From Pseudomonadota bacterium (GTDB lineage Bacteria; Desulfobacterota; Binatia; UBA1149), in NCBI GenBank assembly GCA_014382245.1, contig JACNKC010000054.1:631-64630 (forward strand): DNA of 64,000 nucleotides, read 5' to 3'. How positions within the stretch are numbered: position 1 is the first letter of the stretch; the number at the start of each line of letters is the position of its first letter. Below the pieces are notes generated by a model. It made no database searches and had not been told where the DNA came from. It worked only from the letters and a program-made list of their open reading frames with translations. This document shows, one piece after another, positions 11,556 to 61,593 of the stretch. The position numbers and the translations under genes were made by a program.

Positions 11556-11614
11556 AAGTGTTTTTCCCCTCGTGTTTTGCGGCAGGGCTATGATTGCCCT
11601 GCGCCACCGGGGCA

Positions 11615-13587: not shown

Positions 13588-13597
13588 CGGGCGGGGG

Positions 13598-14002: not shown

Positions 14003-14017
14003 AAAATCGTCCGTGTT

Positions 14018-14578
14018 TCAGATGCTTCCAGGGCCGGCGTGCCCAGCGCTCACCATGCGGTCGCCGAGGGCCTGGCCTTCGCGTTGAGCGTGGCGTTCGA
14101 GCTGGCTGACCACCAGCAGGCCCGACAACGCCGCTACCATGCCGGCCATGGTGGGTATGGTGGCGCGCCCCACCCCGGCCGCCATGGCGCGGGCGTTGCC
14201 GTTGCCCGACACCGCCATTACGTCGAAGACCTCTATCATGCCGGTCACCGTGCCCAGCAGCCCGAGCAACGGGCACACGGCCACCAGCGTGCGTATGAGC
14301 AGCAGGCCTTTTCCGAGTTCCTCGCGGGTGCCCGCCACCAGCATGCGCTTGATGTCGTGGGCCCCGCGCGACGAACGTTCGGGTAGCCTTAGCCAATGAT
14401 CGAGCGCGAGCTGCTTTACCGCGGGATAATCGGCGCGCTTGTACCACAGCCTTTCGAGTATCAGCGCCCACATCACGAAGGTCACCAGCGCGATAACCGC
14501 TAGTACCGGGCCGCCGGCTTCGAGGAAATCACGCGCCAGTAGAACGGGTGTCAGCAGCCAGGCCAGGACGTCAGCCAT
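14018..14578 (-). CDS. exbB: MotA/TolQ/ExbB proton-channel family protein
   Basis: 186 aa; LLGLLGTVTGMIEVF motif of the ExbB/TolQ TM2-3 region. Confidence 0.9.
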   Translation of the reverse strand: MADVLAWLLTPVLLARDFLEAGGPVLAVIALVTFVMWALILERLWYKRADYPAVKQLALDHWLRLPERSSRGAHDIKRMLVAGTREELGKGLLLIRTLVAVCPLLGLLGTVTGMIEVFDVMAVSGNGNARAMAAGVGRATIPTMAGMVAALSGLLVVSQLERHAQREGQALGDRMVSAGHAGPGSI

Positions 14579-15968: not shown

Positions 15969-16825
15969 GACTGGTCTCCGCCGCTTCCTGCCGGCTGCCG
16001 AGCGGTGGGTAGTGGCGTGGCTGCTGGAAGCGGCAGCTCGAGCAGGGCCGGCGCGGTCTGCTCGCGGGCCACCGCAAGCCCCTTGCGTATGGCCGCGCCG
16101 TAGTCGCCGTCGAGGTCGGTCCACGCGCCGGTGTCGCGGTCCCAGGCTCCCGTGAGTTTGCCGTCGAGCGAACGATAGAGCAGTGCCAAGCGGCCCACGC
16201 GCAGGAAGTCCACCGTGCGCTCTGTGTCACCCAGGCTAAGCGTGCCGCGATAGGCCTCCAGGGTACGGCCGTACTCGTTTTCGACCTGGTACGCTTCGAG
16301 CACGCGACGGTATTTTTCGGAGTCGGTAACGTCGGCCCTGTCCATCATGGCCCTGAGCGAGGCCACCCTGTTGGCTCGCTCGTCGGCGAGGAAAGGAATA
16401 TCGAGCTCGACGAAGCTCTCCAGTGAGTCGATCATGCGCAGCATCAGCGGTGAGAGTTGACGACCGACCAGGGCCACCTGCTCGATCTGTTCGCCCAGCG
16501 AATCTATGTCTTCTTTTTGCCTGGTCAGCAGGCGGTTGAGCTGGACGTTGTAGACGCGCAGTGACTTGACCTGCTCGAGCACGCGGCGGTACTCGGCGAT
16601 CGTGGTGTCGGTTTCGTCTGCCAGCCGATCTATCTTCTGCTGCGAGAGCAGCGAATCGGCGTTGGCCTTATCGCGGATCTCGATGGCCAGGTCCAGTGCC
16701 TCGGGGGGATCGTCTGCGGTTGCTGTTGCCGCCAGTACTGCCGCCAGGAACAAGGTCGTGGTGACCGAGGCCACGCTTGCTCGCCAGGGAAGGATAGGGC
16801 GGTTATGAAAAACAAGTGGCTTCAC
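15965..16825 (-). CDS. DUF3450 domain protein (first gene of TonB2-type operon, TtpB-like)
   Basis: Signal peptide plus coiled-coil rich protein (LLSQQKIDRLADETDTTIAEYRRVLEQVKSLRVYN...) in the conserved position upstream of the large ExbB homolog. Start approximate (GTG 16825). Confidence 0.65.
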   Translation of the reverse strand: MKPLVFHNRPILPWRASVASVTTTLFLAAVLAATATADDPPEALDLAIEIRDKANADSLLSQQKIDRLADETDTTIAEYRRVLEQVKSLRVYNVQLNRLLTRQKEDIDSLGEQIEQVALVGRQLSPLMLRMIDSLESFVELDIPFLADERANRVASLRAMMDRADVTDSEKYRRVLEAYQVENEYGRTLEAYRGTLSLGDTERTVDFLRVGRLALLYRSLDGKLTGAWDRDTGAWTDLDGDYGAAIRKGLAVAREQTAPALLELPLPAATPLPTARQPAGSGGDQS

Positions 16826-16971
16826 ATCTGGACTCCAGGGTTTACGATCATCGCGGTACCGCATGCGCCGGGCTGCCTTGCGACGTCTGCTGCGTATAAC
16901 GTAGAAGCGCTAACTATTACAACGACTGCCTGGTATGCACGGGCGTGAGCGATGACGAGGAGCACAAGACG

Positions 16972-21412: not shown

Positions 21413-21518
21413 GCTTTCTCTCCCGTGGGCCGGGTGCGGCGCTGCCCGATGATTGCCCAGCCGGGGGCTGGGTGCAAGGCCTGTTTCCCTAAGGCCTGCG
21501 CTCGTGGGAGACAGGAGC

Positions 21519-22655
21519 ATGGAAAACCAGACCCTCGCGCCCTTGTCGCAGGCGGCATGGAAACAATTGGTCGAGTTGCTGGCGGGTGGAGAAGAGAGTT
21601 TCCTGGCTCCCCACCGCGGGGTGAAGCTCGAGCACGACCAGGCCTCGGGCTACCGCTCGCTGATCCACCTGCTCGGCTACGCCGTTGACCTCTACATGGA
21701 CAACGACCCGCTGCGGCCCACGCTGGTGCAGCTGGCCTCGCCGGTGCGCAAGATGCTGGGCGACAACGTCGATTCGCACTATCATTTTACCCAGCTCGAC
21801 CCCACGCGCAGCTACCGGTTGTACGGGCGCAAGGGCAATCACTGTTACCTGGGCTTCTGCGTTTACGCCGGCCCGCGCGACGGCTCATGGTCGGATCGTA
21901 TCGCCGCCAATATGTCGCACAGGGACATCGAGTTTGAAGACAACGGTGCCTTCGAGTTGTCGCTCGTGCCCGCGGCGTCGCTGCCTGGCACTGGCGATAA
22001 CGGCCCCTCCAGAAATGATGCGAAGAACGTAATCCTCCTCGACGAGGACGTGAGCTGTCTCATCGTGCGCCAGTATTTTTTTGACCGCGACGAGGCCGAG
22101 CCGGCCGAGCTCGAGATAGAGATGACCGAGGACATCGGCCCTCCCGCCCCGCTGTCGGACCAGGAGATGGCCGACCGTTTGCGCGCGGCGACGCGTTTTG
22201 TCGAGCAGACGATGGGTGCGGTGCCCATGCCCGATCTTGGCGAGGCCAACGACTTCCTGGGCTTTATAGAGTTTGACAAGAACGCCAGTGGCTGGGGCAC
22301 GACCGATAACGTGTACGCGCTGGGCAACTACAGCCTGGCCGACGACGAGGCGCTGGTCGTGGAGGGCCACCCGCAGCCCTGCTGTTACTTCGGCCTGCAG
22401 TTGTGGAACCGCTACATGCAGTCGCTCGATTACCGCTACCAGCGCGTGGCCATCAACGGTGAGCAGCTCGAGTTCGAGGACGACGGCAGCTTCCGCGTGG
22501 TCATAAGCGCCGTCGATCCAGGCCTACCCAACTGGATTAGCACCGCCGGCCACCCCGAGGGCGTGTTTTTCTGTCGATGGCTGCTCGCCGACGGAGATCT
22601 CGATATGCCCAGCTGCAGCGTGGTGCCGGTCGACAGCCTCCGCCCTGGCGGCTGA
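21519..22655 (+). CDS. Conserved hypothetical protein (possibly DUF1214/DUF1254-like), divergent from the DUF1329 gene
   Basis: 378 aa from MENQTLAPLSQAAW...; long clean ORF with good codon usage. Family call uncertain. Confidence 0.55.
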   Translation: MENQTLAPLSQAAWKQLVELLAGGEESFLAPHRGVKLEHDQASGYRSLIHLLGYAVDLYMDNDPLRPTLVQLASPVRKMLGDNVDSHYHFTQLDPTRSYRLYGRKGNHCYLGFCVYAGPRDGSWSDRIAANMSHRDIEFEDNGAFELSLVPAASLPGTGDNGPSRNDAKNVILLDEDVSCLIVRQYFFDRDEAEPAELEIEMTEDIGPPAPLSDQEMADRLRAATRFVEQTMGAVPMPDLGEANDFLGFIEFDKNASGWGTTDNVYALGNYSLADDEALVVEGHPQPCCYFGLQLWNRYMQSLDYRYQRVAINGEQLEFEDDGSFRVVISAVDPGLPNWISTAGHPEGVFFCRWLLADGDLDMPSCSVVPVDSLRPGG

Positions 22656-22697
22656 CACTCTGTGGCATCAGGCCCTGCGGGCGGGCATACTGCTGCG

Positions 22698-24437
22698 ATG
22701 CACGACCTGGTGATTCGCAATGCGACCGTAGTGGATGGAACCGGCCGCGAGCGCTTTGAAGGCGATGTGGCCATAGACGGCGGACACGTGGCCGAGCTGG
22801 GCCAGGTGGCGGGCAAGGGTGAAGAGGAGATCGACGCCTCGGGCCTGCTGGCGATGCCCGGCTGGGTGGACGTGCACACGCACTACGACGGCCAGGTCAC
22901 CTGGGATCCGCTGCTGACGCCTTCGTTCTGGCACGGGGTAACGACCGTGGTCATGGGTAACTGCGGAGTTGGCTTTGCGCCGGCCGCTCCGGGGCAGCGC
23001 GAGTGGCTGGTCGGCCTGATGGAGGGCGTCGAAGATATTCCCGGTACCGCGCTCAACGAGGGCATACGCTGGGACTGGGAGAGTTTTCCGGAGTACCTCG
23101 ACGCGCTCGAACGCTGTCCGCACGCCATCGACGTGGCCGCGCACATTGCCCACGGTCCGGTCCGGGCCTACGTCATGGGCGAGCGCGGTGCGAGCAACGA
23201 GCCGGCCTCCGCCGAAGACATAGCCAGGATGGCCGAGCTGGTGGGCGAGGCCATGCGCGCGGGCGCCCTGGGTTTCTCGTCCTCTCGTACGCTGCTGCAC
23301 GTGGCCATCGATGGCGAGCCGGTACCCGGCACCTTTGCCGCCGAGGACGAGTTGATGGCCTTCGCGCGGGTGCTGGGCGAACACGGCAGCGGCATTTTTG
23401 AGGTCGCGCCGGCGGGCGTGTCGGGCGAGGACCTCGCTGCCCCCGAAAAAGAGATAGCGTGGATGCAGAGGGTATCGGCGGCCACCGGCTGTCCGATCAC
23501 TTTTCTGCTGGGGCAGAACACTCTCGAGCCCGACGCGTGGCGGCGCATGCTGCAATTGTGCGAGCAGGCCGACGCCGAAGGCGCGCGCGTGTACCCGCAG
23601 GTGTTCGGGAGACCGACCAACCTGCTGTTCAGTTTCGAAGGCGTGAGCCCCTTCGCGCGCTACCCGAGTTTCGAGCCGCTTATGAACATGACTCCAGAAG
23701 AGCGCATGCCGTTTCTTCGCGACCCGTCGTTTCGCGCCAGGGTGTTGTCGGAGTGCGATCCCAACGACGACGTCTTCGCCATGATGATGAAAGACCCGTG
23801 GCATCAGTCCTTCGAGCTTGGCGACCCACCCGACTACGAGCCCGACGCTTCGTGCTCGCTGGCGGCGCGTGCGGCGCGTGACGGTGTCGATCCGCGCGAA
23901 CTGGCCTGGGACATAATGCTGGGCGACGAGGGGCGCGCAGTGGTGTTGTGGGCCCTGCTCGGTTACGCCGACGGCGACCTCGAGCCGGTGCGTCATATGC
24001 TCGAGCACCCCTTGTCGGCCGTTGGCGGAAGCGACGGTGGAGCCCACTGCCGCATGATATGTGACAGCAGCGTGCCGACCTTCCTGCTCACCCACTGGAC
24101 CCGCGACCGCAGCCGTGGGCCGCGCTTGTCGCTGGAGTCACTGGTCAAGAAACAGAGCCGCGACACGGCGCGCTTGTACGGCCTCGATGACAGGGGAGAG
24201 ATCACGCCCGGGCAGAAGGCTGACATCAACCTGGTCGATTACGACGCCTTGTCGGTCGGCGTGCCGCGCATGGTGTATGACCTGCCCGGTGGCGCGCCGC
24301 GCTTCATGCAGAAGGCGCTTGGCTACAAGGCCACGCTCGTGGCTGGACAGGTGGTGCAGCGCGACGGCGAAGACAGCGGAGCACGACCGGGTCGCGTGGT
24401 CAGGGGCCCCCAGCCGGCGTACCAAGCAGGGCTGTAA
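22698..24437 (+). CDS. N-acyl-D-amino-acid deacylase (D-aminoacylase) family amidohydrolase
   Basis: MHDLVIRNATVVDGTG...GWVDVHTHYDGQ...VTTVVMGNCGVGFAP metal-dependent amidohydrolase motifs; about 580 aa, typical of D-aminoacylases. Confidence 0.85.
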   Translation: MHDLVIRNATVVDGTGRERFEGDVAIDGGHVAELGQVAGKGEEEIDASGLLAMPGWVDVHTHYDGQVTWDPLLTPSFWHGVTTVVMGNCGVGFAPAAPGQREWLVGLMEGVEDIPGTALNEGIRWDWESFPEYLDALERCPHAIDVAAHIAHGPVRAYVMGERGASNEPASAEDIARMAELVGEAMRAGALGFSSSRTLLHVAIDGEPVPGTFAAEDELMAFARVLGEHGSGIFEVAPAGVSGEDLAAPEKEIAWMQRVSAATGCPITFLLGQNTLEPDAWRRMLQLCEQADAEGARVYPQVFGRPTNLLFSFEGVSPFARYPSFEPLMNMTPEERMPFLRDPSFRARVLSECDPNDDVFAMMMKDPWHQSFELGDPPDYEPDASCSLAARAARDGVDPRELAWDIMLGDEGRAVVLWALLGYADGDLEPVRHMLEHPLSAVGGSDGGAHCRMICDSSVPTFLLTHWTRDRSRGPRLSLESLVKKQSRDTARLYGLDDRGEITPGQKADINLVDYDALSVGVPRMVYDLPGGAPRFMQKALGYKATLVAGQVVQRDGEDSGARPGRVVRGPQPAYQAGL

Positions 24438-28589: not shown

Positions 28590-30872
28590 ATGATAAGCAG
28601 GCGTTTTTTTGTTGGTGTTTTGAGATCTTTTCACCGCGGATCAGCCGCGCTGGCGACGGCTCTCCTGATCTTCAGCCCGGCCGTAAGCCTGGCCGCCGGG
28701 AGTACGAGCATCCTGGCCGCCAAGTGCGATGCGGCAATGTTCAAGACAGCGGGCAAGCTCCTGTCGTGCCGCCTGCGCGTTGACTCCAAGGCGGTAAAAG
28801 GCGGCGTGATGGCCGACTACTCCAAGTGCTCCGCCAAGTTCAACAAGAAGTGGGACAAGCTGATAGTCAAGGGTGCAGGTGAATGCGCGCCGGGGGCAGA
28901 AAGCTCGACCGTGGGCGCGACCCTGGACGACCAGGCCGGCGAGTTGGCGGCCGCGCTGGCGGGCAGCGGCTCGGACCCGGCTGCCAGGAAGTGCGAATCT
29001 GCTAAGCTCAAGGAGACCGGCAAGTACAGCTACTGTCGGCTCAAGGAAGACTCCAAGGCTGCAAAGAAGGGGTCAATCCAGGGCTATACACGTTGCCGCG
29101 ACAAGTTCGCGGCCAAGTGGGCAAAAATCGAGGCGCGCGGCGGTAGCAGTTGCCCGACCCTGGGCGATGTCGCCGCCATAGACGTCAGCGTGGTGGGTCA
29201 CGCTGGCCAGATCACGGTGGCCGTGTCGACGCGCAGCGACGAATTGAAGTTTGTCACGGTCGCCCCGACCTTCGTGACGGGAGCACCCTACGCCTCGGTG
29301 GATCCCGACCAGGGTGACCCCAACACCAGGGACGAGGAAGACGAGGGGCGCATGATAGTGCCCGACGGCCCGCTGGTAGGCGATCTTAACCCGGCCAACG
29401 ACGAGACCACCGTGGCGTCGCTCGATGGCGGCGTGTGCGCGGGCAAACCCGGGCAGTCCTGCAACGGCGACAGCGAGTGCCCCGACTGGGGCCGTTGTAT
29501 CAACTCCGAGGCCGTCCCCTGCACCGACCCGGCCGGCCAGGGTTGCTCGTGCAGCTCGAACGGGCAGCTTGCCTGCGCGACCGACGCCGATTGCCAGGAG
29601 TGCCTGGCGCCGGCTCGCGCGGCCGGGCGCGCCCCGGTGACCTTTCCGCGCATAACGGTTTTCCAGGGGGCCGTGTCTGCCTTGCCGTCGCTCAACCCAC
29701 CCGATTCAAATGTCGCCAGCGGCGGCGACAACAGCGTGGTGCTGGCTTCGGGCAACACCTACGCGGCTCTTTCGACCGACGGCGGTGCGACATTCGCAGG
29801 GGTGAACCCCTCCACCGTGTTTCCCAGTGCCGCGGTGGCCGGCGTGCACGGCGGGCTGTGCTGCGACCAGGTGATTCAGTACGTACCCGGGATAGACCGC
29901 TTCGTCTGGCTGATGCAGTACTGGAGGGATGCCACCGGGCCCAACATGCTGCGCATCGCCTCGGCCAGTGCCTCGGCCGTGGTTTCGAGCGGGGCCACTG
30001 CGTGGACTTACTGGGATCTCCCCTCCACCCTGTTCGGCCTGGGTACGGGCTGGATGGACTACCCGGACCTGGCCGTCGGCGACAACCATCTTTACATGAG
30101 CGTGGACCAGGTGGGCGTGGGCTTGCTGGTGGCGCGCATATCGCTGGCCCAGGTACAGGCCGGCGGCAGCATCAACATCGGCTACACCAACCCGGCCTTG
30201 TCGAGCACTGCCTACTTCAGCCACCTTACCCAGAACACCGGTGACGAGATTTTCTGGGCCGGCCACAACAACAGCAGCCAGATGCAGGTGTTTTCGTTGC
30301 ATTCGGCGTCGAACACTTACTTCTGGCGCAACGTCAATATCAACAGCTGGAACAACACCACTGCCAACTACACGTCTACCGCGGCAGACGGGACCGACTG
30401 GTACAGCTCGGCGCGCGGGGTAGGCGGGTCGTGGATAATCGGCGCGGCGCGCGCGGGTAACGACATCTGGTTCGCGTGGAACGCCGCCTCGGGCGGCGGC
30501 TTTGCCCAGCCTCACTCGCAGCTGGTGCGCGTCAATCCGTCCACCTACAACCTTGTCAGCCAGCAGCAGGTATGGAACGGCTCTGTTGCCTTCAGCCACC
30601 CCTGCCTGTCGTCGAGCCCGGCGGGCGAAATCAGCATGTCGCTGGCCTTTGGCGGTGCGGCCTTCGACGCCAGCCACGCAGTGGGCTACTGGGGAGACTA
30701 CGTGGTCTACTACCCACGCCTGAGCGATCACTCACTGGGCAGGCAGGGCGACTACTACGGGCTCAGGCGGGCGTCGCCGGACGCGAACCAGTTCTCGGCC
30801 TCGGGCTACAGCAGGCAGACCGTCGCGGGCACGCAACGCTACGAGCCGCATTACATTTTGTTCGGGAGGTAG
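28590..30872 (+). CDS. Large secreted protein: signal peptide, two tandem 4-Cys basic modules, Cys-rich linker, C-terminal roughly 450-aa beta-rich (BNR/propeller-like) domain
   Basis: MISRRFFVGVLRSF...AVSLAAG signal. Repeats AAKCDAAMFKTAGKLLSCRLRVDSKAVKGGVMADYSKCSAKFNKKWDKLIVKGAGEC and ARKCESAKLKETGKYSYCRLKEDSKAAKKGSIQGYTRCRDKFAAKWAKIEARGGSSC. Linker CAGKPGQSCNGDSECPDWGRCINSEAVPCTDPAGQGCSCSSNGQLACATDADCQEC. C-terminal motifs SGNTYAALSTDGGATF are BNR-like. Confidence 0.75.
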   Translation: MISRRFFVGVLRSFHRGSAALATALLIFSPAVSLAAGSTSILAAKCDAAMFKTAGKLLSCRLRVDSKAVKGGVMADYSKCSAKFNKKWDKLIVKGAGECAPGAESSTVGATLDDQAGELAAALAGSGSDPAARKCESAKLKETGKYSYCRLKEDSKAAKKGSIQGYTRCRDKFAAKWAKIEARGGSSCPTLGDVAAIDVSVVGHAGQITVAVSTRSDELKFVTVAPTFVTGAPYASVDPDQGDPNTRDEEDEGRMIVPDGPLVGDLNPANDETTVASLDGGVCAGKPGQSCNGDSECPDWGRCINSEAVPCTDPAGQGCSCSSNGQLACATDADCQECLAPARAAGRAPVTFPRITVFQGAVSALPSLNPPDSNVASGGDNSVVLASGNTYAALSTDGGATFAGVNPSTVFPSAAVAGVHGGLCCDQVIQYVPGIDRFVWLMQYWRDATGPNMLRIASASASAVVSSGATAWTYWDLPSTLFGLGTGWMDYPDLAVGDNHLYMSVDQVGVGLLVARISLAQVQAGGSINIGYTNPALSSTAYFSHLTQNTGDEIFWAGHNNSSQMQVFSLHSASNTYFWRNVNINSWNNTTANYTSTAADGTDWYSSARGVGGSWIIGAARAGNDIWFAWNAASGGGFAQPHSQLVRVNPSTYNLVSQQQVWNGSVAFSHPCLSSSPAGEISMSLAFGGAAFDASHAVGYWGDYVVYYPRLSDHSLGRQGDYYGLRRASPDANQFSASGYSRQTVAGTQRYEPHYILFGR

Positions 30873-30928: not shown

Positions 30929-31702
30929 TCAGCCAGCGGCGACTTTTCTTGCGGCCACGATAGTGCTGCGCGCGCACAAGGTGCGCCAGCTGTTCATCGC
31001 CGCGAGTGCTGTAGAGTTGTCGGCCAGCAGGCCGGGGGTCTTGCGCGCCATGCGACGCCGCGACTTCCACTCCGACAGCTTGATCAGCGGCCAGGCCAGC
31101 GGCAGCATCGCCAGGGCCGAGCTCTTGAAGCGATCGTGGTGGTGGGCCACTTGCTCGAAACCGGCCCGAGCCATTCCCCAGTTCAGGTAGTAGGGGTGCA
31201 TGGGCATTATGTGTCCCGACAGGTAGCGGGCTGACTCTTCGTCGGTGGCCAGGGGCCCGAACAGCATCCAGAAGCCCCGCCCTGCAAACGCCAGCCTCGA
31301 GTTGAGGTTGAGCAGGTTGGGGGTCGTGACCACCGCCAGGCCACCGGGGCGTAGCACGCGATAGATTTCGCGCAGGAAGGCGTAAGGGTTTTCCAGGTGC
31401 TCTACGACTTCCACCGAGTACACGCAGTCAAAGCTCGCGTCGTCGTAGGGCAGGGAGTCCATGAAACGCATGCCACGGCACTCGACTCCCTCGCAGTCGA
31501 AGTAGTCGGGAAACAGGTCGCAGGCCGCCAGTACCTGCCCGGGGTCGAGTCCCTCGTCGCGCGCGTGATCAGCCAGCAGGCGGGCGAGGTAGCCGTTGCC
31601 CGCGCCCAGGTCGAGCAACCGTCGGTCGCGTAGCCCTCCCTCGGTCACCAGCTCGAGTACGCGAGCGTTGGTTGTGGGGTTTGAAAGTGGTTGCGGGTCC
31701 AT
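30929..31702 (-). CDS. Class I SAM-dependent methyltransferase
   Basis: LLDLGAGNGYLARLLADH (motif I GxGxG) and VVEHLENPYAFLREIYRVLRPGGLAVVT (motif II/III). Confidence 0.8.
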   Translation of the reverse strand: MDPQPLSNPTTNARVLELVTEGGLRDRRLLDLGAGNGYLARLLADHARDEGLDPGQVLAACDLFPDYFDCEGVECRGMRFMDSLPYDDASFDCVYSVEVVEHLENPYAFLREIYRVLRPGGLAVVTTPNLLNLNSRLAFAGRGFWMLFGPLATDEESARYLSGHIMPMHPYYLNWGMARAGFEQVAHHHDRFKSSALAMLPLAWPLIKLSEWKSRRRMARKTPGLLADNSTALAAMNSWRTLCARSTIVAARKVAAG

Positions 31703-31743: not shown

Positions 31744-32973
31744 TCAGACTCCCTGGCTAGCCGGCAGGAGGTAAAACCACAGCGGCTGTGCGACGCCCGC
31801 TTCTTTCATGGCCGCGGCCGCCGCGCGGATGACCTTGCCGGTTTCGGTCTGGCGGTAAATCCAGTTCTCGGTCTGCCGGGCCGCGGGCACGTGGTCGGCC
31901 AACTGCATGGCCGCCAGCTCGTAGTAGCAGCGTAGGTCGTGGCCGGCCGCCAGCAGGTCGCCGCCGGGGATGTCGGCGTCTTCAAAGGGCGTACCGTCGG
32001 CTATGCGCACGAAGGCCGCCACCGCGTCGGGCACGCTGTCTGCGGTCAGCTTTTTGCCGAAGCCCGAGCGCAGGGCGTTTTCGCCGGCGCGCTCAAAGGC
32101 CGCGCGCAGTCCGCGTGCTTCTTCAACGGCCGGGTGACTGTCGCCGTCGTGGCGCGGGGGCAGTGGGCATGAGAACTGCTCGGCCTGTTCGTCGACTATG
32201 ACCTCGGGGTAATCCAGCAGTACCGGGCCCGAGGGAGCCTCGAGCATCTCGAAGGCGGCGCGCAGAACTCCGCGTTGAAACTTCGCATCACCCGGACGCC
32301 CCAGCGGTCGTCCCAGCGGAAACTCGCAGTGCATCATGCGCGGCGCGTGCACGCGCTCGGCCTGTCCGCGAACCGACGACAGGCTCACTGTCGCCAGCCC
32401 TGCCTGCTCAAAAACGTGGGCGAGCACACCAACGGTGCGCGTGCAGAACGGTCATATGGGGGTGAGCACAACGATGTCGGTTCCGTCGCGCTTGAGGCGT
32501 TCGGCGCAGGCCGGTCCGCTGTCCAGGCGCATGGTTTCAAGGTTGTGGTCAGGCTGGGCACCCATGAAGGAGTAGTGCCGCGGGGCCACGCTGCCAATGC
32601 TGCCGTCAGCCGCCAGTTCGGCCAGGCGCTTGACGGGAAACACCACCTCGGGGTCGGCCATGAAACCGCTGCGGTCGAAGTTGGGGCTGAAGTGCGCGAG
32701 CGCCAGCTTGTCTGCGTCCACGGGGATCTCGGTGAAGGCCTGGTCACCGGGTGCCCAGTAGGTGTCTCCGTCCGTGCGCAGGCCGGCAGTGGTCACGATG
32801 GCCACCTGGGCCTCGGCCAGCAGTCGCGGTTTGGTGAACGCGGTGTTGTCGAAGTCGTAAACGGGGATGTCGTTGACGAACTGTCGCAGCAGCACGTCTC
32901 CCTGGGGATCGTCGCCCTGTTCCTGGTCGCCCTGGTTTTTTTCGGCCCGCGGCTGGTCACTCATGAGCGACAA
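31744..32973 (-). CDS. Glycine/betaine/proline reductase 'selenoprotein B' (GrdB/PrdB)-like family protein with a single in-frame TGA (32454..32452); candidate selenocysteine codon (TPI-U-PFC)
   Basis: Track ORFs 32452..32973 and 31744..32427 are in the same frame and are separated only by one TGA: ...DIVVLTPI-TGA-PFCTRTVGVLAHVFEQAGLATV... Together about 409 aa, the size of GrdB-family proteins. The UxxC motif and a downstream hairpin support recoding over pseudogenisation. Confidence 0.55.
32424..32440 (-). promoter_or_regulatory. SECIS-like hairpin 11 nt downstream of the in-frame UGA: GCGCACC-GUU-GGUGUGC
   Basis: mRNA UGA-CCGUUCUGCAC-[GCGCACC GUU GGUGUGC]-UCGCC. A 7-bp stem including one G-U pair, with G and U in the apical loop. 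The spacing from UGA matches the bacterial SECIS arrangement (about 11 nt to the stem). Confidence 0.35.
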
Positions 32974-33061: not shown

Positions 33062-34012
33062 ATGGAACTCACGCAGCTAGCAGATTCGATTTACGCGGTT
33101 ACGCAGCTTGGCAAGGCCACTGTGCTGGGCTGGAGCAACTCGGGCCTGGTCGATTCGGGCGACGGGCTGGTGGTCGATACTTTCTGGGACCGCCCGCTGA
33201 CCGACGAACTGTTGGGGCTTTACGCGGGCATTCGCCCGGAGCGTCCCGGCACGCTGGTCAACACCCACCACAATGTTGACCACACCGGCGGCAACTCGGC
33301 CATGCGCGGAGCGCGCATAATCGCCCACGCCAACTGCGCGGCCGCGATGCAGGCAGAGGCCGGGATGCACGGCTTGTTCCAGGCCCTGGCCGACGCTGAC
33401 CCGGCCACCCTCGAGCCCGCGCAGGCTGCGCTGGCCGAGGAGCTGCGCCCTTTTGACCACGCGAGCGTGGAGCTGGAGCTGCCCACCGAATCGGTCGTGG
33501 AGGCCACCGAGCTTGATCTTGGCGGCACGGTAGTGCGGCTGGTCCCCATGGGCCCGGCGCACACCGACAACGACATGGTCGTTCACCTTCCGGAGCAGAA
33601 CGTGCTGTTCACCGGCGATCTGCTTTTCAACCAGTGCACGCCCATAGGCTGGGCCGGCACCACGCAGCTGTGGATGGACTCGCTCGACGCCATGGTGGCG
33701 CTTGAGCCCGAGGTGGTAGTGCCCGGCCACGGGCCGGTGTGTGGTACTGACGGCTTGCTGGGTCTGCGCGATTACTTTGCCTACGTGTTGCGAGAGGCGC
33801 GCGTGTTTTTTGACCGCGGCGTGGCGGTGGACGACGCCTGCCGGCAGATAGACCTCGGGCCCTACGGCGAGTGGGAGGCCCCCGAGCGACTGGTGTTCAA
33901 CGTGCAGCGCTCTTACAACGAGTTTGCCGGCGACACCGACGCCACGATAGACGCGGCCGACATGATGTCGCGCGCGTTCGCCCTCAAGCCCGCCCTCAAG
34001 CCCGCGCGCTGA
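33062..34012 (+). CDS. MBL fold metallo-hydrolase
   Basis: TLVNTHHNVDHTGGN (HxHxDH), downstream His/Asp ligands (TDNDMVVH, VPGHGP). Confidence 0.85.
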   Translation: MELTQLADSIYAVTQLGKATVLGWSNSGLVDSGDGLVVDTFWDRPLTDELLGLYAGIRPERPGTLVNTHHNVDHTGGNSAMRGARIIAHANCAAAMQAEAGMHGLFQALADADPATLEPAQAALAEELRPFDHASVELELPTESVVEATELDLGGTVVRLVPMGPAHTDNDMVVHLPEQNVLFTGDLLFNQCTPIGWAGTTQLWMDSLDAMVALEPEVVVPGHGPVCGTDGLLGLRDYFAYVLREARVFFDRGVAVDDACRQIDLGPYGEWEAPERLVFNVQRSYNEFAGDTDATIDAADMMSRAFALKPALKPAR

Positions 34013-34865
34013 CCATCCAGCTGCGGCCGGGCATGATCACGCCGCGCTCGGCGCTGTAGTAAGGCTCGAGTGCTTCGCGCACCGCGCCGCGGGCGGCCTC
34101 GGCGGCCTGGGCGTCGGCCTCGCGCACGGCCTGTGCGGCCGGTCCCATCTGCAGCATGAACTCGACGGTCTGGTCCAGCTCGGCGCCGCCACCGACTTCC
34201 ATTTCTACTTCGAAGGGCTCGACCAGAAGGTCACCGAAGCCTGCCCCCTTGAGCAGTCCGAGCAGCCGCTCGCGGTCGGCAAAGGCGAAGGGCCCGGGCG
34301 CGTTCGGGTCGGAGGGTAGCTCGATTGCAACGTGGGCCAGGGCCGCGCGCGTGGGTTCGAACATCCACGGGTTTTCGGTAATGGCCTGCCAGCACACGAA
34401 AGACATCCTGCCGTCGCCCTCTATTGCGCGCCTGAGGTTGCCGAGCGCGGTTACGGGGTCGTCAAAGAACATCACCCCGAAGCGAGAGTACACGAGGTCG
34501 TAAGCCCCGGGCTCAAAGTCGTATACCTGGGCGTCGGCCACGAAGGCCTCTATATTTTTAAACCCGCCGCTCGCGGCACGTTCGTTGGCCCGCGCGACCA
34601 TGGGCGAAGACACGTCCACGCCCGTAACGCTCCCGCTCTCGCCCACATCTGCGGCAAGTTCGAGCAGTGTCTGCCCGCAGCCGCAGCCGACGTCGAGCAC
34701 TGACTCGCCCGCGCAGGGCGCGCCCCGACGCCGGGCCTCGACCCCCAGCGGTCCTATCAAGCGGTCGAGCGAGTCCTGCATGGCCACCCAGCGCGGGCCC
34801 GCGGTCTGGTCCCAGTAGTCGATCTGTTTTTCGTTGGTCGTGGTCGCGCTGCCTTCGTTCTGCAT
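33996..34865 (-). CDS. Class I SAM-dependent methyltransferase
   Basis: VLDVGCGCGQTLLELA motif I, DLVYSRFGVMFFDDP motif. Start at the ATG on the minus strand at 34865 (MQNEGSATTTNEKQIDYWDQ). Confidence 0.8.
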   Translation of the reverse strand: MQNEGSATTTNEKQIDYWDQTAGPRWVAMQDSLDRLIGPLGVEARRRGAPCAGESVLDVGCGCGQTLLELAADVGESGSVTGVDVSSPMVARANERAASGGFKNIEAFVADAQVYDFEPGAYDLVYSRFGVMFFDDPVTALGNLRRAIEGDGRMSFVCWQAITENPWMFEPTRAALAHVAIELPSDPNAPGPFAFADRERLLGLLKGAGFGDLLVEPFEVEMEVGGGAELDQTVEFMLQMGPAAQAVREADAQAAEAARGAVREALEPYYSAERGVIMPGRSWMVSARA

Positions 34866-35004
34866 GCGTGGGTTTTTACACGCTTGCAGCGTATTGAAAA
34901 GCACTTGGGCCCGGTCGTCGGCCGCGTGGCGGAGAGAAGTCCGCTGTTCGCGAAACAAAAAATACCCCTGCGGCTATCGGTGGTGGGCCGCCGGACAGGC
35001 TACA

Positions 35005-39239: not shown

Positions 39240-39812
39240 TTGGCTAGACTTGATTACCCCGATCTCGACACGCTCGACGAGGAGACCACCCGGCGCCTGA
39301 ACGCGCTTGGCCGGCCGCTCAATATCTTCCGCATGCTGGCCTGGTCGCCGGGCCTGCTGGCCGGTTTCCAGGACATGGGCGCGGTGGTGCTCGGTGGGCT
39401 CGAACTGGACGCGTCGCTGAGAGAGATCGCCATACTGCGCGTGGCCCAGGTGGCAGGTGCCGGTTACGAGTGGGCCCAGCACGTTCCCATAGGCATGGCC
39501 TGCGGTGTGACCCAGGCCCAGGTGGACGCTCTCGAGCAGGGCGCGGCCGACTCCGACGCGTTTTCGGAGTTGGAGCTCGACGTCATCGCGGCGGCAGACG
39601 AGTTGTTGGCTGACGCCCGCCTGGGCGACTCAACCCTCGAAAAACTTTGCGAGGCTCTCGGTGATCGCCAGGTGGTGGAGCTGTTGGTGGCCGTGGGCTT
39701 CTACACCATGGTGAGTCGTTTTCTCGAGAGCACCGGCGTGGAAATCGAGGCTGGCGGCGTGCCCGGCCCCGATGAGCAGCGGCGCGTGATGGATCGCGTC
39801 GGCGACGCCTGA
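39240..39812 (+). CDS. Carboxymuconolactone decarboxylase (CMD/AhpD-like) family protein
   Basis: TTG start 8 nt after an AAGGAG Shine-Dalgarno; ...LRVAQVAGAGYEWAQHVPIG... is the CMD-family CxxH-like helix region. Confidence 0.7.
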   Translation: MARLDYPDLDTLDEETTRRLNALGRPLNIFRMLAWSPGLLAGFQDMGAVVLGGLELDASLREIAILRVAQVAGAGYEWAQHVPIGMACGVTQAQVDALEQGAADSDAFSELELDVIAAADELLADARLGDSTLEKLCEALGDRQVVELLVAVGFYTMVSRFLESTGVEIEAGGVPGPDEQRRVMDRVGDA

Positions 39813-39819
39813 GGCGCGC

Positions 39820-40737
39820 ATGCCCGGGTCGAAAGTGGAACGCATCGGCCTGGGTGAGCGGGGTGACCTGCGCCTGCTCGGCGGATCGCGCGGTGGCAAG
39901 TATCCATCGGGCAACTCGCTGCTGCTCGAAGACGACTTGTGCCTGGTCGTAGACCCGTCGCTCGACGTGGCCGAGGCGGGCGCGTCGGTCACGAGCCGCA
40001 AGGTCGACCTGGTCATCAACAGTCACGCGCACGAGGACCACTTTGCCGGTAACTCCGTCTTTGAAGACGCCGAGCTGCTGCTGCACGAGAACGAGGCCCC
40101 CCTCATGGCTTCGCTGGACGCGCTCATGGCCGCTTACGGAATGGACGAGGAGTTCGATACGCTGTGGCGGCAGGTAACGGTAGACAAGTTCAATTTTCGC
40201 CCGCGTCCAGACGCGCGCTCAGCCGTGGACGGCGAGGTTATCGACACCGGGCGTAACCGCGTCCACCTGCTGCACACGCCCGGCCACACGAGTGGGCACC
40301 TGGTAGTTCGTTTTGAGCCCGACGACATAGTGTTCGTGGGCGATCTCGATCTGACCACCTTCGGGCCTTACTACGCCGACGCTTCTGCGAGCCTGGACGA
40401 AACGGTTGCTTCGCTCGAGATGCTGCGTGACATGGCTCCAGGGTTGCGGGCCTTCGTGAGTTTTCATGAAGCGGGCGTCATAGAAGACGACCTCGTTGGC
40501 GCCGTCGACCGTTACCTGGCCGTGGTCGATCATCGCGACCGGCGCTTGCTCGAGTTGAGCGAAGAGCCGCGCAGCCTGGCAGAGATCGCCCGCGAGTGCG
40601 TGGTGTACGGCAAGCGCTACGAGCACATACCATGGCAGCCCTTCGCCGAGCGAGTGATGATGGAGCGGCACGCCGAGCGCTTGATCGTACGCGGCGAGCT
40701 GACCAGGGAAGAAGATGGCCGCTTTCGCCGCGTATGA
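39820..40737 (+). CDS. MBL fold metallo-hydrolase
   Basis: VINSHAHEDHFAGN (HxHxDH), LLHTPGHTSGH. Confidence 0.85.
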   Translation: MPGSKVERIGLGERGDLRLLGGSRGGKYPSGNSLLLEDDLCLVVDPSLDVAEAGASVTSRKVDLVINSHAHEDHFAGNSVFEDAELLLHENEAPLMASLDALMAAYGMDEEFDTLWRQVTVDKFNFRPRPDARSAVDGEVIDTGRNRVHLLHTPGHTSGHLVVRFEPDDIVFVGDLDLTTFGPYYADASASLDETVASLEMLRDMAPGLRAFVSFHEAGVIEDDLVGAVDRYLAVVDHRDRRLLELSEEPRSLAEIARECVVYGKRYEHIPWQPFAERVMMERHAERLIVRGELTREEDGRFRRV

Positions 40738-40746
40738 GCCAGGCGG

Positions 40747-41145
40747 CTATCCGCCCGCGAGCTCGAGCAGCAGGCCGGCTGGATCCCACCAGGACATCAA
40801 CGCGCGGATCTTACCGTCGTCGTTGAACTCGAATACGTCGATGCCTTCGCAGTCGGTCTCGCTCGACTCAGCGGAGGCAGTACCGGTCCAGTAAACGGCC
40901 GCGCCGCCCCTGCTCTGCAGCACCCGCTCGGGACGCCGTTGGTAGGACGAGAACGGCCCGGTGAACTGCTTCCACAATTTGGTTATTGCCTCGCGGCCCT
41001 CGGCCGCTGGCGAGTCGACGGGGTCGTGCACCACCGCATCGGTGGCAAACAAGTCGAGCCAGGCGGCGAGGTCGCGCGAGGCCTGGGCCTTGTAGAGCAG
41101 GTCTATTGTACGGGTGATGGAGGGGTCTTCTAGGGTTGTATCCAC
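40747..41145 (-). CDS. NTF2-like / SnoaL-like (ketosteroid isomerase-like) domain protein
   Basis: 132 aa; ...IDLLYKAQASRDLAAWLDLFATDAVVHDPV... typical SnoaL_2 start. Confidence 0.6.
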   Translation of the reverse strand: MDTTLEDPSITRTIDLLYKAQASRDLAAWLDLFATDAVVHDPVDSPAAEGREAITKLWKQFTGPFSSYQRRPERVLQSRGGAAVYWTGTASAESSETDCEGIDVFEFNDDGKIRALMSWWDPAGLLLELAGG

Positions 41146-41484
41146 AGGCTCTGCCTGCCCGCAGATGGCTGCCGATTCAAGCCGAGTATACGCTTGGCCG
41201 CCTGTCTTGCGGGCTCCCGTAGCTGCTCCACCGGCAAAGCCGCGTGTTTTGCGGGCTTTTCGCCGACGTGGAAAAATGCAATAAGAAACACGTACTTAGG
41301 GAGAACCATCCACTTGGGGGGGCAGCCCAAGGCGGCCTCCACCCCTGCCTCGCCGAACAGCGCTCTGCTAAATCGCGGGCAAGCCGAGCCTGCTCGGGGG
41401 TCGGTGCGAAAGAGACTGGGATTCGCTCTGCAAGTGGTGCAATCTTGAGTCACTGCCATTCTCCTTCACACGAACTACGGCAGG

Positions 41485-41518
41485 GGGAGCCTCGCTTCGG
41501 AGAGGCTCCCTTTTTTTT
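41485..41518 (+). terminator. Rho-independent terminator (9-bp GC stem GGGAGCCUC/GAGGCUCCC, 8-nt loop, U8) on the plus strand, not preceded by any plus-strand gene
   Basis: GGGAGCCTC-gcttcgga-GAGGCTCCC-TTTTTTTT read directly. The minus-strand version lacks a U-tract, so it is unidirectional. Confidence 0.7.
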
Positions 41519-41644
41519 GGCCTTCCTCTTTGCGGAATAATACAGCAAAAATAAAGTAAAGGGTGGGGGCACCAGGTTGAGGGGGCATAGCTGTCGGCCC
41601 CCTGGCTTGTGTACCGCGGCTGACCCGTCTAGCACGGCACTGTT

Positions 41645-43000
41645 ATGGCTCAATCAAATCCTGATCTTCTCGTCATCGGTGGCGGCAGCGGTGGACTGGC
41701 CGCGGCCAAGCGGGCGGCGTCTTACGGCGCGCGCGTACTGTTGGTCGAAGGCGACCGCCTGGGCGGCACCTGCGTCATACGCGGCTGCATTCCCAAGAAG
41801 CTGATGTTCTTTGCGGCCTCGTACGCCCACTCGGCCCACGACGCGGCCGCTTATGGTTGGCGATCCAGCAGCCCGGCCGAGCTCGACTGGCCGGCACTGG
41901 TGGCCGCTCGCGACGCCGAGGTAGGCAGGCTCGAGGGCGTGCACGAGCGCTTGCTGGCCGAGGCCGGCGTGGAGTTGCTGCACGGCAGGGCCAGGCTTTG
42001 CGGTCCGGGCAGCGTGCAGGTGGGTCGCCGCGAGATAAAGGCGGACAGGGTGCTGCTCGCTACCGGCAGCCGGCCCGCGCTGCCCACGCTGCCGGGCGTG
42101 GAGCACGCGATTACCAGCGATGGGTTTTTTGAACTCGCCGAACAGCCGGCGAGAGCGGTGGTGGTCGGTGCCGGCTACATAGCCGTTGAGCTGGCCGGCG
42201 TATTATCGGCGCTTGGTACCCACACCTCGCTTGTCTACCGGCGTGGGCTACCACTTCGCGGCTTCGATGAAGACATCCGCGCCGAGCTGGCCGAGCGCAT
42301 GGCTGATTCGGGTATAAAACTCTGTGCAAACAGCGTGGTTGAGGGCATAGAACACGGCGATGGCGGGTTGACCGTGCAGTTAAAAAGCGGCGACCAGGCG
42401 CCGGAGATCACGAGCGACGTGGTTATTTATGCAACCGGGCGTAAGCCCAACACCGAGGGCCTGGGCCTCGAAGCGGTCGGCGTGGCCACGGGGGCGCAGG
42501 GGCAGGTGCTGGTGGACGAGGGTTTGCGTAGCAACGTCGAGGGGGTGTTTGCGGTGGGCGATCTCACCGGGCGCGTGATGCTGACACCGGTGGCCATACA
42601 GGAAGGTCGCGCGCTGGCCGACCGCGAGTTCGGCGGCAAGGACAGCGAGATGGACTACGAGGGCATACCCACGGCGGTGTTCAGCGAGCCGCCCATAGCC
42701 AGCGTGGGTCTGAGCGAAGAACAGGCCCGCGAACGCTGGGGCGAAAACGGCGTACGCGCCTTCAGCACGCGCTTCAATCCGCTATTGCACTCGCTCACCG
42801 GTCGCCGCGCACCGGTGTTCATGAAACTGGTCGTGCGCGAAAGCGACGACACGGTGGTGGGATGTCACATGACCGGACCCGACGCGCCCGAGATCATACA
42901 GGGCGTAGCCGTTGCCATGAAGGCCGGCGCCACCAAGGCCCAGTTTGACGCCACGGTGGGCATTCACCCGAGCAGCGCCGAAGAACTCGTCACCCTCTGA
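41645..43000 (+). CDS. gor: Glutathione-disulfide reductase
   Basis: FAD motif LLVIGGGSGGLAAAKRAA, redox-active disulfide GGTCVIRGCIPKK, NADPH motif, C-terminal HPSSAEE. Confidence 0.9.
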   Translation: MAQSNPDLLVIGGGSGGLAAAKRAASYGARVLLVEGDRLGGTCVIRGCIPKKLMFFAASYAHSAHDAAAYGWRSSSPAELDWPALVAARDAEVGRLEGVHERLLAEAGVELLHGRARLCGPGSVQVGRREIKADRVLLATGSRPALPTLPGVEHAITSDGFFELAEQPARAVVVGAGYIAVELAGVLSALGTHTSLVYRRGLPLRGFDEDIRAELAERMADSGIKLCANSVVEGIEHGDGGLTVQLKSGDQAPEITSDVVIYATGRKPNTEGLGLEAVGVATGAQGQVLVDEGLRSNVEGVFAVGDLTGRVMLTPVAIQEGRALADREFGGKDSEMDYEGIPTAVFSEPPIASVGLSEEQARERWGENGVRAFSTRFNPLLHSLTGRRAPVFMKLVVRESDDTVVGCHMTGPDAPEIIQGVAVAMKAGATKAQFDATVGIHPSSAEELVTL

Positions 43001-43020
43001 AGGGGATCACGCTCCTTCGA

Positions 43021-43404
43021 TCAGTGCAGGGTGCGCGGCATGTTCAGCTCGAAGCGGGGTATGCTCACCCGGAAGCTCTCGCCATCCTCGCCTATCATGC
43101 CGTAGCTGCCCTGCATGCTGCCGTCGGGGCAAGCCAGTATCGCACCGCTGCTGTACTCGTGCTCTTCGCCTGGTTCGAGCACCGGCTGTTCCCCGACCAC
43201 GCCTTCGCCTTCTACTTCGCGCACCGAGCCGTCCTGCTCGCTGATAACCCAGTGGCGGTCGAGCAGTTGCACGCTGCGCTCTGACTGGTTGCCAATCGTG
43301 ATGTGGTAGGCAAACACGTAGCGGTCCCGGGCCGGGTCGGACTGTTGGGCAATGTAGGCAACCCGTACCGCAATTTCGATTCCTTTTGTGATTTCACTGG
43401 GCAC
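43021..43404 (-). CDS. apaG: ApaG (DUF525) protein
   Basis: 127 aa; ...YVFAYHITIGNQSERSVQLLDRHWVI...G..F.Y.S... matches the ApaG family. Confidence 0.85.
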   Translation of the reverse strand: MPSEITKGIEIAVRVAYIAQQSDPARDRYVFAYHITIGNQSERSVQLLDRHWVISEQDGSVREVEGEGVVGEQPVLEPGEEHEYSSGAILACPDGSMQGSYGMIGEDGESFRVSIPRFELNMPRTLH

Positions 43405-43509
43405 AGGCCCTTTCTAGCAGCTGCTGCCGCCCGTGCGCAATCGAGTGCGTGCAAGCCGGGCCGTCGCGGACCTGTTCCGTGGGCAACGCCGCTGTGGCAA
43501 GCTATCCCC

Positions 43510-45651
43510 ATGCCGCTACATCATCGTGCCTGCAACCTGTGTGAAGCCTGCTGTGGAATCCTCGTGGAGACCGAGCAGGACCGTGTCGTAAAAATCGAGG
43601 GAGACGAGAACGACCCCTTGTCGCGGGGCTACATATGTCCCAAGGTATTTGCGCTCGTCGACCTGTACGAAGACCCCGACCGCCTGCGTCGCCCGGTGAT
43701 TCGCGAGGGCGACAGCTGGCGGGAAGTAGAGTGGGACGAGGCCTTTCGTGTCGCCGCGCAGGGATTGCACGCTGTGCAGAAGACGGGCGGTCGCGACACC
43801 CTGGCCACCTACTTCGGTAACCCCACGGTACACAACCTGCCGGCCCAGTTGTCGGCCGCCATGCTCATACGCACGCTGGACAGCCAGGTGCGTTTCAGCG
43901 CGTCGACGGTCGACCAGTTCCCCCACATGCTGGCGGCCCAGCAGGTGTTCGGCGGCCAGCTGACCATCGCCGTCCCCGACGTCGACCGCTGCCGAATGCT
44001 GATCATGATGGGCGCCAACCCGCTGGCCTCGAACGGCAGCTTCATGACCGCCCCTGGCATCCGTGGTCGCCTGCGGGCCATACAGAAACGCGGCGGCAAG
44101 GTGGTCGTCATAGACCCGCGTCGCAGCGAGACCGCGCGCCTGGCCGATCGCCACCTGTTCATACGACCGTCCACCGACCCGCTGCTGCTGCTGGCCATGC
44201 TCAACGTCATTTTTGCCGAGGGCCTGGTTGCGCCCGGCGCGGCTGACGGGCTGATCGACGGCGCTGAGCTCATCGAACAGCACGCCGCGAGTTACACCCC
44301 CGAAGCGGTGGAGCTGCTCACGGGAATTGCCGCGGCCGACATCCGCGAGCTCGTCAAGGATTTTACCGACGAACCGGCGGCGGCCGTGTACCCCCGCATC
44401 GGCACTTGCCTGCAGCCCTACGGCACGCTGGTCAGCGTGCTGGCCCTTGCCGTGAACCTGCTAACGGGCAAGGTCGACCGGGAAGGCGGCCTGATGTTTC
44501 CCCACGCCGCGATACCCAACCGTTCGCGTGGCAGGTACGGTCGCTGGAAGTCACGGGTGCGCGGAATGGCCGAGTTCGCCGGCGAGATCCCGGCGGCCAC
44601 CATGGCCGAAGAAATGGATACGCCTGGTGAAGGGCAGTTGCGCGGCCTGGTCACGATGGCCGGCAACCCGGTACTGTCTACGCCCAACGGTCGGCGACTG
44701 GAGGGCGCGCTGGAGGGGCTCGACTTCATGGTCAGTCTCGACCCCGCGCTCAACGAGACCACCAGGTTTGCCAACGTGATACTGCCGCCGAGGAGTTCGC
44801 TCATGAACCCGCAGTACAGCCTGGCGTTTCACCAACTGGCCGTGCGCGACACCGCTCGTTTCAGCCAGCCGGTTTTTGAGGCCGCAGATGGCGACCTGAG
44901 CGAGTGGGAAATCAGCCGTGGCTTGCTATCCGAGCTCGTCCGGCTGCGCAACGAAGACGCCGCCGCTTCGGGCGGCGAGACCGAGGCCGACCCCGCCCAG
45001 GCCATGTCGGCGACGGTTACCGAGGTGGTGGACATGATGCTCGCCGGTGGTGAGCACGGGCTGACGGTTGAGAAACTCTCCGAGCATCCCTCGGGGCTGG
45101 ACCTGGGTGCGCTCAAGACAGGCGGGCTGGCGCGGGTCGTGCTCCACGACGACGGACGCGTCAAGCTTGGCGGTGACATGGTCGAGCGAGAGCTCGAACG
45201 CCTGGCCGCTGACTTTGCCCGGGGAAGGGTAGGGCAGGTGACTGAGCCCGACGCCGAGGGCAACGGCATGCTGCTGGTTGGCCGACGGCACCTGCGGTCA
45301 AACAACTCCTGGATGCACAACTGTCCGAGCCTGGCCGAGGGCAAGCCGCGCTGCACGGCGCTGATCAATCCGGCCGATGCCTCGCGCCTGGACCTGGCGG
45401 ATGGACAGCTGGTGAGCGTACAGAGCCGCGTGGGCCGGGTGGATATTCCGGTGGAGCTGAGCGACGAGATTATGGTCGGGGTGGTCAGCATTCCCCACGG
45501 CTGGGGGCACGACCGCCCCGGGACCCGCATGAAGGTGGCGGCAGAAGCCGGTGGTGTGTCGGTAAATGACCTCACCGACGAGACCCAGACCGAGGGCCTG
45601 ACGGGCAACGCGGTGCTCAACGGCGTTCCTGTAACCGTGGCTGCGGCCTGA
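43510..45651 (+). CDS. Molybdopterin-dependent oxidoreductase (formate dehydrogenase/nitrate reductase-like catalytic subunit with N-terminal 4Fe-4S Cys motif)
   Basis: CNLCEACCG...CPKV (C-x2-C-x3-C-x27-C) followed by molybdopterin-binding domains and a C-terminal MoCo dinucleotide-binding beta-barrel (VSVNDLTDE...). 713 aa from ATG 43510. Confidence 0.85.
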   Translation: MPLHHRACNLCEACCGILVETEQDRVVKIEGDENDPLSRGYICPKVFALVDLYEDPDRLRRPVIREGDSWREVEWDEAFRVAAQGLHAVQKTGGRDTLATYFGNPTVHNLPAQLSAAMLIRTLDSQVRFSASTVDQFPHMLAAQQVFGGQLTIAVPDVDRCRMLIMMGANPLASNGSFMTAPGIRGRLRAIQKRGGKVVVIDPRRSETARLADRHLFIRPSTDPLLLLAMLNVIFAEGLVAPGAADGLIDGAELIEQHAASYTPEAVELLTGIAAADIRELVKDFTDEPAAAVYPRIGTCLQPYGTLVSVLALAVNLLTGKVDREGGLMFPHAAIPNRSRGRYGRWKSRVRGMAEFAGEIPAATMAEEMDTPGEGQLRGLVTMAGNPVLSTPNGRRLEGALEGLDFMVSLDPALNETTRFANVILPPRSSLMNPQYSLAFHQLAVRDTARFSQPVFEAADGDLSEWEISRGLLSELVRLRNEDAAASGGETEADPAQAMSATVTEVVDMMLAGGEHGLTVEKLSEHPSGLDLGALKTGGLARVVLHDDGRVKLGGDMVERELERLAADFARGRVGQVTEPDAEGNGMLLVGRRHLRSNNSWMHNCPSLAEGKPRCTALINPADASRLDLADGQLVSVQSRVGRVDIPVELSDEIMVGVVSIPHGWGHDRPGTRMKVAAEAGGVSVNDLTDETQTEGLTGNAVLNGVPVTVAAA

Positions 45652-60154: not shown

Positions 60155-60164
60155 CTCCTGGGGG

Positions 60165-61577: not shown

Positions 61578-61593
61578 GGAAGGTACAGGTTAG

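Follow-up and report, generated by a model that had tools for sequence, protein, structure and literature searches.

The locus lies on the minus strand of a 64-kb window, the whole stretch of DNA that was analysed (64,000 nucleotides). Translation of positions 32973..31744 of this strand revealed a sole internal stop, the TGA at 32454..32452, in the context DIVVLTPI-*-PFCTRTVGVL, as anticipated by the original prediction of a single in-frame UGA within TPI-U-PFC. Gene callers place the start at ATG 32964 on independent assemblies, and read-through from this codon yields 170 aa, U171 and a further 235 aa, that is, a product of 406 aa. A length of about 409 aa, likened to that of GrdB, had been proposed earlier; the read-through itself stands, at 406 aa from the ATG, whereas the resemblance to GrdB is coincidental, the domain architecture being different. 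The features of the locus are as follows.

31744..32964, minus strand: predicted complete selenoprotein coding sequence of 406 aa, with ATG at 32964, Sec-UGA at 32454..32452 and the true stop TGA at 31746..31744
32452..32454, minus strand: in-frame UGA predicted to be read as Sec (U171); Cys in Cys-form homologs, TGA in 79/80 related loci
32443..32454, minus strand: U-P-F-C redox motif (U171, C174); C174 invariant, U/C171 column at least 97% conserved
32420..32444, minus strand: predicted SECIS element, with its core hairpin GCGCACC-GUU-GGUGUGC at 32440..32424, 11 nt past the UGA
32239..32886, minus strand: PrdB/GrdB-like alpha/beta domain (aa 27-242), matched by the Pfam GRDB and NCBIfam PrdB profiles; AF2 pLDDT 92
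31747..32238, minus strand: family-specific, mostly helical C-terminal domain (aa 243-406), beyond the ends of the PrdB and GrdB profiles
32169..32167, minus strand: conserved Cys266, within the C-terminal domain
30929..31702, minus strand: class I SAM methyltransferase (Pfam Methyltransf_11), 41 nt downstream of the selenoprotein gene on the same strand

Elsewhere in the window TGA is an ordinary stop codon. It terminates 31 of the 39 Pfam-supported genes and is thus the main stop of this organism, so that genome-wide TGA reassignment was rejected and recoding at 32454..32452 must be local. A second candidate selenoprotein gene, the same-frame, high-GC3 pair 21453-22655 and 22656-24437, was also discarded; it is the only other such pair in the window and consists of two separate genes. 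Coding on both sides of the TGA at the locus under study had been described as clean and as an argument against a decayed pseudogene, and read-through translations from 79 species bear this out, with 53% identity upstream and 52% downstream of the codon in the same frame.

Profile searches placed the protein in the neighbourhood of the protein B subunits of amino acid reductases. Pfam GRDB (PF07355) matches aa 27-168 with 28.6 bits, above its gathering cut-off of 22. The best NCBIfam match, PrdB (TIGR04483), aligns positions 25-219 of its 238 to aa 47-242, yet its 114.5 bits remain below the cut-off of 300; TIGR01918 (profile positions 199-409 of 431; 46 bits against 65.45) and GrdB TIGR01917 (positions 199-404 of 431; 32.9 bits against 602) also score below theirs. 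These values indicate a PrdB-sized domain of the GRDB superfamily rather than an equivalog of any characterised protein B. The C-terminal domain yielded no match in Pfam or the PDB, and C266, P269, E282, W368 and T373 within it are conserved in Sec and Cys forms alike. Across the family, conservation reaches at least 97% at U/C171, C174, C266, H130, D97, D104 and R209 and in the motif FPLGxPLGxP. In the AF2 model, U171 sits in a loop between strand 164-168 and helix 174-187, of which C174 is the first residue, and pLDDT exceeds 96 over residues 160-200, which span the TGA site. The UxxC context initially pointed out at the TGA is equally evident in the alignment, where full-length homologs have, at this column, a near-invariant Cys belonging to a CPxC motif. 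A fusion architecture also exists, as a 1019-aa protein (P0226) carries the post-Sec region of the family at residues 656-825.

The names given to homologs at JGI and GenBank imply that the gene codes for a genuine catalytic component of D-proline reductase (PrdB) or of glycine, sarcosine or betaine reductase (GrdB/GrdF/GrdH). Such a reading is favoured by the rank of PrdB among the NCBIfam matches, the above-cut-off GRDB score, the UxxC motif at the equivalent position and the label 'D-proline reductase (dithiol) PrdB' that homologs bear in the source databases. However, the equivalog and subfamily scores fall far short of their cut-offs, the GrdB profile is matched only in its C-terminal half, and the 165-aa extra domain is absent from both PrdB and GrdB. 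The gene surroundings speak against it as well: genes for Gly_reductase (PrdA/GrdE), GRDA, GrdC and GrdD were found neither in the window nor in any annotated homolog context, the annotated contexts of five Cys forms being likewise devoid of PrdA/GrdE, GrdA and GrdC/D. When all ORFs within 6 kb were clustered, no neighbour family occurred in more than 14 of 77 loci, and thus no neighbour is conserved. Moreover, the host lineages are largely aerobic heterotrophs. On balance, we regard a role as a genuine PrdB or GrdB subunit as highly improbable, and the PrdB-like protein appears to act alone. The earlier view that this context is unlike that of grd operons, and that the product is an uncharacterised GrdB-like oxidoreductase, agrees with the missing grd/prd partners and the sub-cut-off NCBIfam scores.

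A side-by-side comparison with the characterised enzymes delimits the relationship further. D-proline reductase PrdB (TIGR04483) of Clostridium sticklandii and C. difficile shares with the window protein a homologous alpha/beta domain and a UxxC motif whose Sec occupies the corresponding position, but it is a single-domain protein of ~240 aa, whereas the window gene encodes 406 aa including 165 additional C-terminal residues, has no prdA/prdC/prdD/prdE/prdF operon nearby and belongs to a family hosted by largely aerobic lineages. With GrdB/GrdF/GrdH (TIGR01917, TIGR01918, NF040794, NF040795; PF07355) it has in common the Pfam GRDB match above the gathering score, and its Sec column matches the Sec region of GrdB at the end of the Pfam model. 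In contrast, the match to the ~430-aa GrdB profile is confined to its C-terminal half, at a sub-cut-off score, and grdA, grdE, grdC, grdD and trx are missing from the vicinity.

As to the immediate neighbourhood, the methyltransferase gene at 30929..31702 is possibly co-transcribed with the selenoprotein gene, and the same three-gene order is kept in relatives at 90% identity or more. The remaining flanking genes encode a divergent MBL-fold hydrolase, a second methyltransferase, a serine beta-lactamase-family protein, an MFS transporter, an SDR and a DegT aminotransferase. None of the window neighbours, the methyltransferase at 30929..31702 included, recurs in 80 related loci, and the nearby methyltransferases and MBL hydrolases were rejected as partners because they are not conserved across those loci. 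Three class I SAM methyltransferase genes occur in the 64 kb (30929-31702, 33996-34958 and 56565-57206), and two of these lie on either side of the selenoprotein gene; Cys forms in two loci (L087, L094) likewise have methyltransferases nearby, without conservation across the 80. At one Cys-form locus (L092:6001-7628, encoding P0003), a gene for GCV_H, the lipoyl-carrying H protein of glycine cleavage, follows the homolog after 32 nt and is a possible thiol-carrier partner, seen once only.

The rest of the window has the look of a Gram-negative aerobic heterotroph, with TonB/ExbB, TonB-dependent receptors, DUF1329, sulfatases, PEPCK and ThiC. A TonB-dependent uptake cluster at 9174-16909 (minus strand) comprises genes for a TonB-dependent receptor, a TPR protein, a TonB C-terminal domain protein, two MotA/ExbB proteins and DUF3450. 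Positions 57270-63063 hold three sulfatase-family genes and a type I phosphodiesterase-family gene; sulfatase genes are likewise found beside certain homologs (L089, L093). A series of redox genes at 39240-45651 includes a second MBL-fold hydrolase, a CMD/AhpD-like protein (~39240-39812), a pyridine nucleotide-disulfide oxidoreductase (41633-43000) and a molybdopterin oxidoreductase (43285-45651), the last of which has no in-frame TGA and is thus not a Sec form. A 760-aa high-GC3 ORF at 28590-30872 (plus strand) is called in four assemblies; it belongs to no Pfam family, and none of the 80 loci contains a relative.

We then turn to the conservation of the TGA codon itself. The exact protein sequence of the neighbouring methyltransferase is present on at least 23 contigs, four of which, from four different samples, were fetched. 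Over 15-21 kb, three of these match the window with 100% identity, and the window may itself derive from one of the three; the fourth (L082) represents a 99.16%-identical strain with three substitutions within the selenoprotein gene. All four contigs keep the TGA. The sequencing error considered at the outset is thereby excluded, the codon being present in three further assemblies and in a 99.2% strain variant. A protein search returned ~50 full-length homologs (380-420 aa) at 41-53% identity, in which the TGA column is a nearly invariant Cys of the CPxC motif, together with many fragments of 226-240 aa that begin just past this column. One genome per species was also scanned, which yielded 323 relatives, and the best 80 were used to check the codon: it is TGA in 79 of them and never TAA or TAG, within the motif LTPV-U-P[LFM]C[TP]R. 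The exception among these 80 is a locus with two Cys paralogs (L075). The alignment of homologs called for by the original prediction therefore gives Cys at the TGA column in full-length proteins and TGA in 79/80 loci of other species. Hosts comprise Binatia/'Deltaproteobacteria' MAGs (the closest, at 56-57%), Acidimicrobiia, Pseudomonadales, Thermoanaerobaculia, Chloroflexi and others. Finally, a library of 1.84 billion representatives at 50% identity was searched with the post-TGA part, which matched 883 clusters at E up to 0.001, and most of the complete matches start at the residue after the TGA, which indicates that Sec forms are truncated by gene callers.

Downstream of the UGA, the hairpin GCGCACC-GUU-GGUGUGC, predicted to follow an 11-nt spacer, was found in its place. 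The spacer covers 32451..32441, the 5' arm 32440..32434, the GUU loop 32433..32431 and the 3' arm 32430..32424; the core stem is a perfect 7 bp, and G32444-C32420 and C32443-G32421 could add a 2-bp lower stem. Hairpins with a 7-bp stem and a 3-nt loop arise at ~0.0014 per position in the window (65% GC), so that a chance occurrence at a set offset is unlikely. In single-sequence thermodynamics, a 66-nt fold proved no more stable than shuffled controls (z = -0.26); folding energy alone is thus uninformative, and support for the hairpin is comparative. Rfam returned no SECIS or other relevant family, either at the gathering threshold or at E up to 10.

This comparative support comes from a gap-free alignment (A2) of 78 sequences around the TGA, in which pairing was scored over 74 distinct sequences. 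Standard pairs fill 91% of stem cells, a share that drops to 15-63% once the 3' partner is displaced by 1-3 columns. At pair 24-34, 48 sequences have C-G, 24 have U-A and two have U-G, and none is unpaired; pair 21-37 alternates among G-C, U-A and G-U; and one locus (L034) carries the fully compensated variant GCGUGUC-gug-GGCACGC. The closing pair is formed in only 24 of the 74 sequences, leaving a 5-nt loop in most members, and the loop has an invariant G followed by a U conserved in more than 90%. Because the stem overlaps conserved codons, Cys forms were taken as the control: of 84 TGA forms (mean -8.9 kcal/mol), 79 have the complete set of six core pairs, whereas eight distinct Cys forms retain only 2-5 of the six, at -0.7 to -5.7 kcal/mol. 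Bacterial SECIS elements place the apical loop 16-37 nt from the UGA (PMC10778597) and carry a conserved G in this small loop (PMC10778597; PMC1088965); here the distance is 18 nt, within that range, and the loop contains the G. Together, these data show that the hairpin is a conserved, TGA-specific structure with the geometry of a bacterial SECIS. Like the E. coli fdhF-type element, it is an intra-ORF hairpin directly after the UGA, with an 11-nt spacer and a small loop bearing a conserved G-U, but it differs in its short stem (6-7 bp), its 3-5 nt loop and the lack of an evident bulged U. The minimal fdhF SECIS has an 11-nt spacing.

These results bear directly on two further readings of the locus. 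A nonsense mutation, or a TGC/TGT miscalled as TGA in the assembly, could have split an ordinary Cys-form gene, in line with the public annotation of two ORFs and with the existence of Cys forms in the family; yet the recurrence of the TGA in three further assemblies, in a divergent strain and at the same column in 79/80 other species, the equal conservation of both halves and the restriction of the SECIS to TGA forms leave such a pseudogene or error with next to no likelihood. Equally negligible is the notion of two separate genes, with termination at the UGA and an independent start at GTG 32427 giving two possibly associating polypeptides: ORF callers do report a GTG-started ORF of 227 aa, but the stop is always TGA and never TAA or TAG in 79 species, the conserved PFCTRT between TGA and GTG, invariant C174 included, would stay untranslated, both parts belong to a single uninterrupted alpha/beta domain predicted with high confidence (pLDDT >96 at residues 160-200), and the Cys forms are single chains.

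Regarding the machinery for Sec insertion, no tRNA and no Rfam match was found in the 64-kb window, nor did tblastn with E. coli SelA, SelB or SelD, or a search for relevant Pfam families, return a hit there; the earlier remark that the window holds no selA, selB, selD or tRNA-Sec is thus correct. In three unrelated genomes, however, sel genes adjoin the homolog or lie within ~6 kb of it. An Iamiaceae locus (L033; 916-5842) has tRNA-Sec, selD, selA and selB divergently adjacent to it, a gammaproteobacterial locus (L060; 8001-17107) has tRNA-Sec, selB and selA at ~5 kb, and an Acidimicrobiales locus (L051; 1695-6468) has tRNA-Sec and selD at ~2.5 kb. This proximity supports the family being a real client of Sec insertion and suggests that the PrdB-like protein is a principal one in these three genomes.

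We conclude, with a probability of roughly 93%, that a single gene occupies the locus and encodes a selenoprotein of 406 residues, a stand-alone PrdB/GrdB-like enzyme whose UGA is recoded via the downstream hairpin. By the established bacterial mechanism, when a ribosome reaches the UGA at 32454..32452, the hairpin 11 nt downstream would act as a SECIS and bind SelB-GTP-Sec-tRNA(Sec), leading to insertion of selenocysteine instead of termination; in the absence of selenium or SelB, a truncated product of 170 aa would be expected. The full-length product would consist of the alpha/beta domain, presenting U171-P-F-C174 between a strand and a helix, followed by the helical C-terminal domain. If the enzyme resembles protein B of glycine and D-proline reductases in its chemistry, the selenolate may serve as the nucleophile of a reductive cleavage or of a thiol-disulfide type reaction, and C174 might then resolve the intermediate into a selenenylsulfide, to be re-reduced by a thiol reductant such as thioredoxin. 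The enzyme would operate on its own rather than as a subunit of a classical grd/prd complex. This putative catalytic scheme is modelled on enzymes that need a pyruvoyl partner subunit, and none was found here.

The family as such has a history under another name. In the Sargasso Sea selenoproteome (Zhang, Fomenko and Gladyshev 2005; PMC1088965), 'Proline reductase PrdB' (UxxC) ranked as the third most abundant selenoprotein family, with 42 genes, and the GOS survey (Zhang and Gladyshev 2008) listed 235 Sec and 110 Cys forms with UxxC under pfam07355. One Sargasso supplement entry, AACY01584242 (VVLLTPVuPLCTRTVG...FARIADGEDW), is 53% identical to window residues 164-334 (171 aa; E = 6e-62) and extends into the C-terminal domain. 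Both have the same motif, which reads LTPV-U-PLC-TRT in the Sargasso entry, and they agree in the sequence that follows it, as far as the first part of the C-terminal domain. The marine sets, on the other hand, are made of fragmentary reads, with short and long subfamilies under one name and an assumed proline reductase function, whereas the window provides a complete gene of known context from a Binatota-like MAG. Neither the extra domain nor the missing partner genes are discussed in those papers, and reviews of 2022 and 2026 list only 'D-proline reductase, TIGR04483', with no separation of stand-alone homologs. The single 'GrdB' of the Sargasso supplement, AACY01202822 (PMC1088965), has Sec at about residue 161 (VDVVLLVPNuPVCHQTV) and a post-UGA hairpin whose CGUGA loop resembles that of the window family; it would seem to be one more stand-alone protein of the PrdB-like kind, not a canonical GrdB. 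The window gene is a fresh member of an already known predicted selenoprotein family, listed since 2005, for which the proline reductase (PrdB) label is not supported. The initial proposal of an uncharacterised GrdB-like oxidoreductase outside a grd operon held, but the family is not new, having been catalogued as 'Proline reductase PrdB' in 2005 and 2008.

In public records the gene is mis-annotated as two ORFs from a 'Proteobacteria bacterium' MAG: the N-terminal fragment is MBC8292378.1, 'selenoprotein B glycine/betaine/sarcosine/D-proline reductase', and the C-terminal one MBC8292377.1, 'hypothetical protein H8E45_04340'. The split and the gene order recur in relatives that share 90% identity or more and bear the label Candidatus Binatota or Deltaproteobacteria. 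Our analysis corrects this division, in which one half appears as a truncated 'selenoprotein B' and the other as a 'hypothetical protein'; it adds little as a discovery, the family having been catalogued as a selenoprotein since 2005. For the organism, it implies that the uncultured Binatota-like bacterium of the window very probably uses selenocysteine. At even odds, we propose that the two-domain family, whose hosts are for the most part aerobic (Acidimicrobiia, Binatota, Pseudomonadales and others), is neither a proline nor a glycine reductase but a separate selenoenzyme, with a reductive chemistry of its own that would dispense with a pyruvoyl partner, and that it may be the main client of the Sec machinery in some lineages, given that selC-selD-selA-selB adjoin the homolog in the Iamiaceae genome. 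Environmental bacteria carry this family in abundance, and Sec forms predominate among the closest relatives, which makes it a reasonable target for biochemical characterisation.
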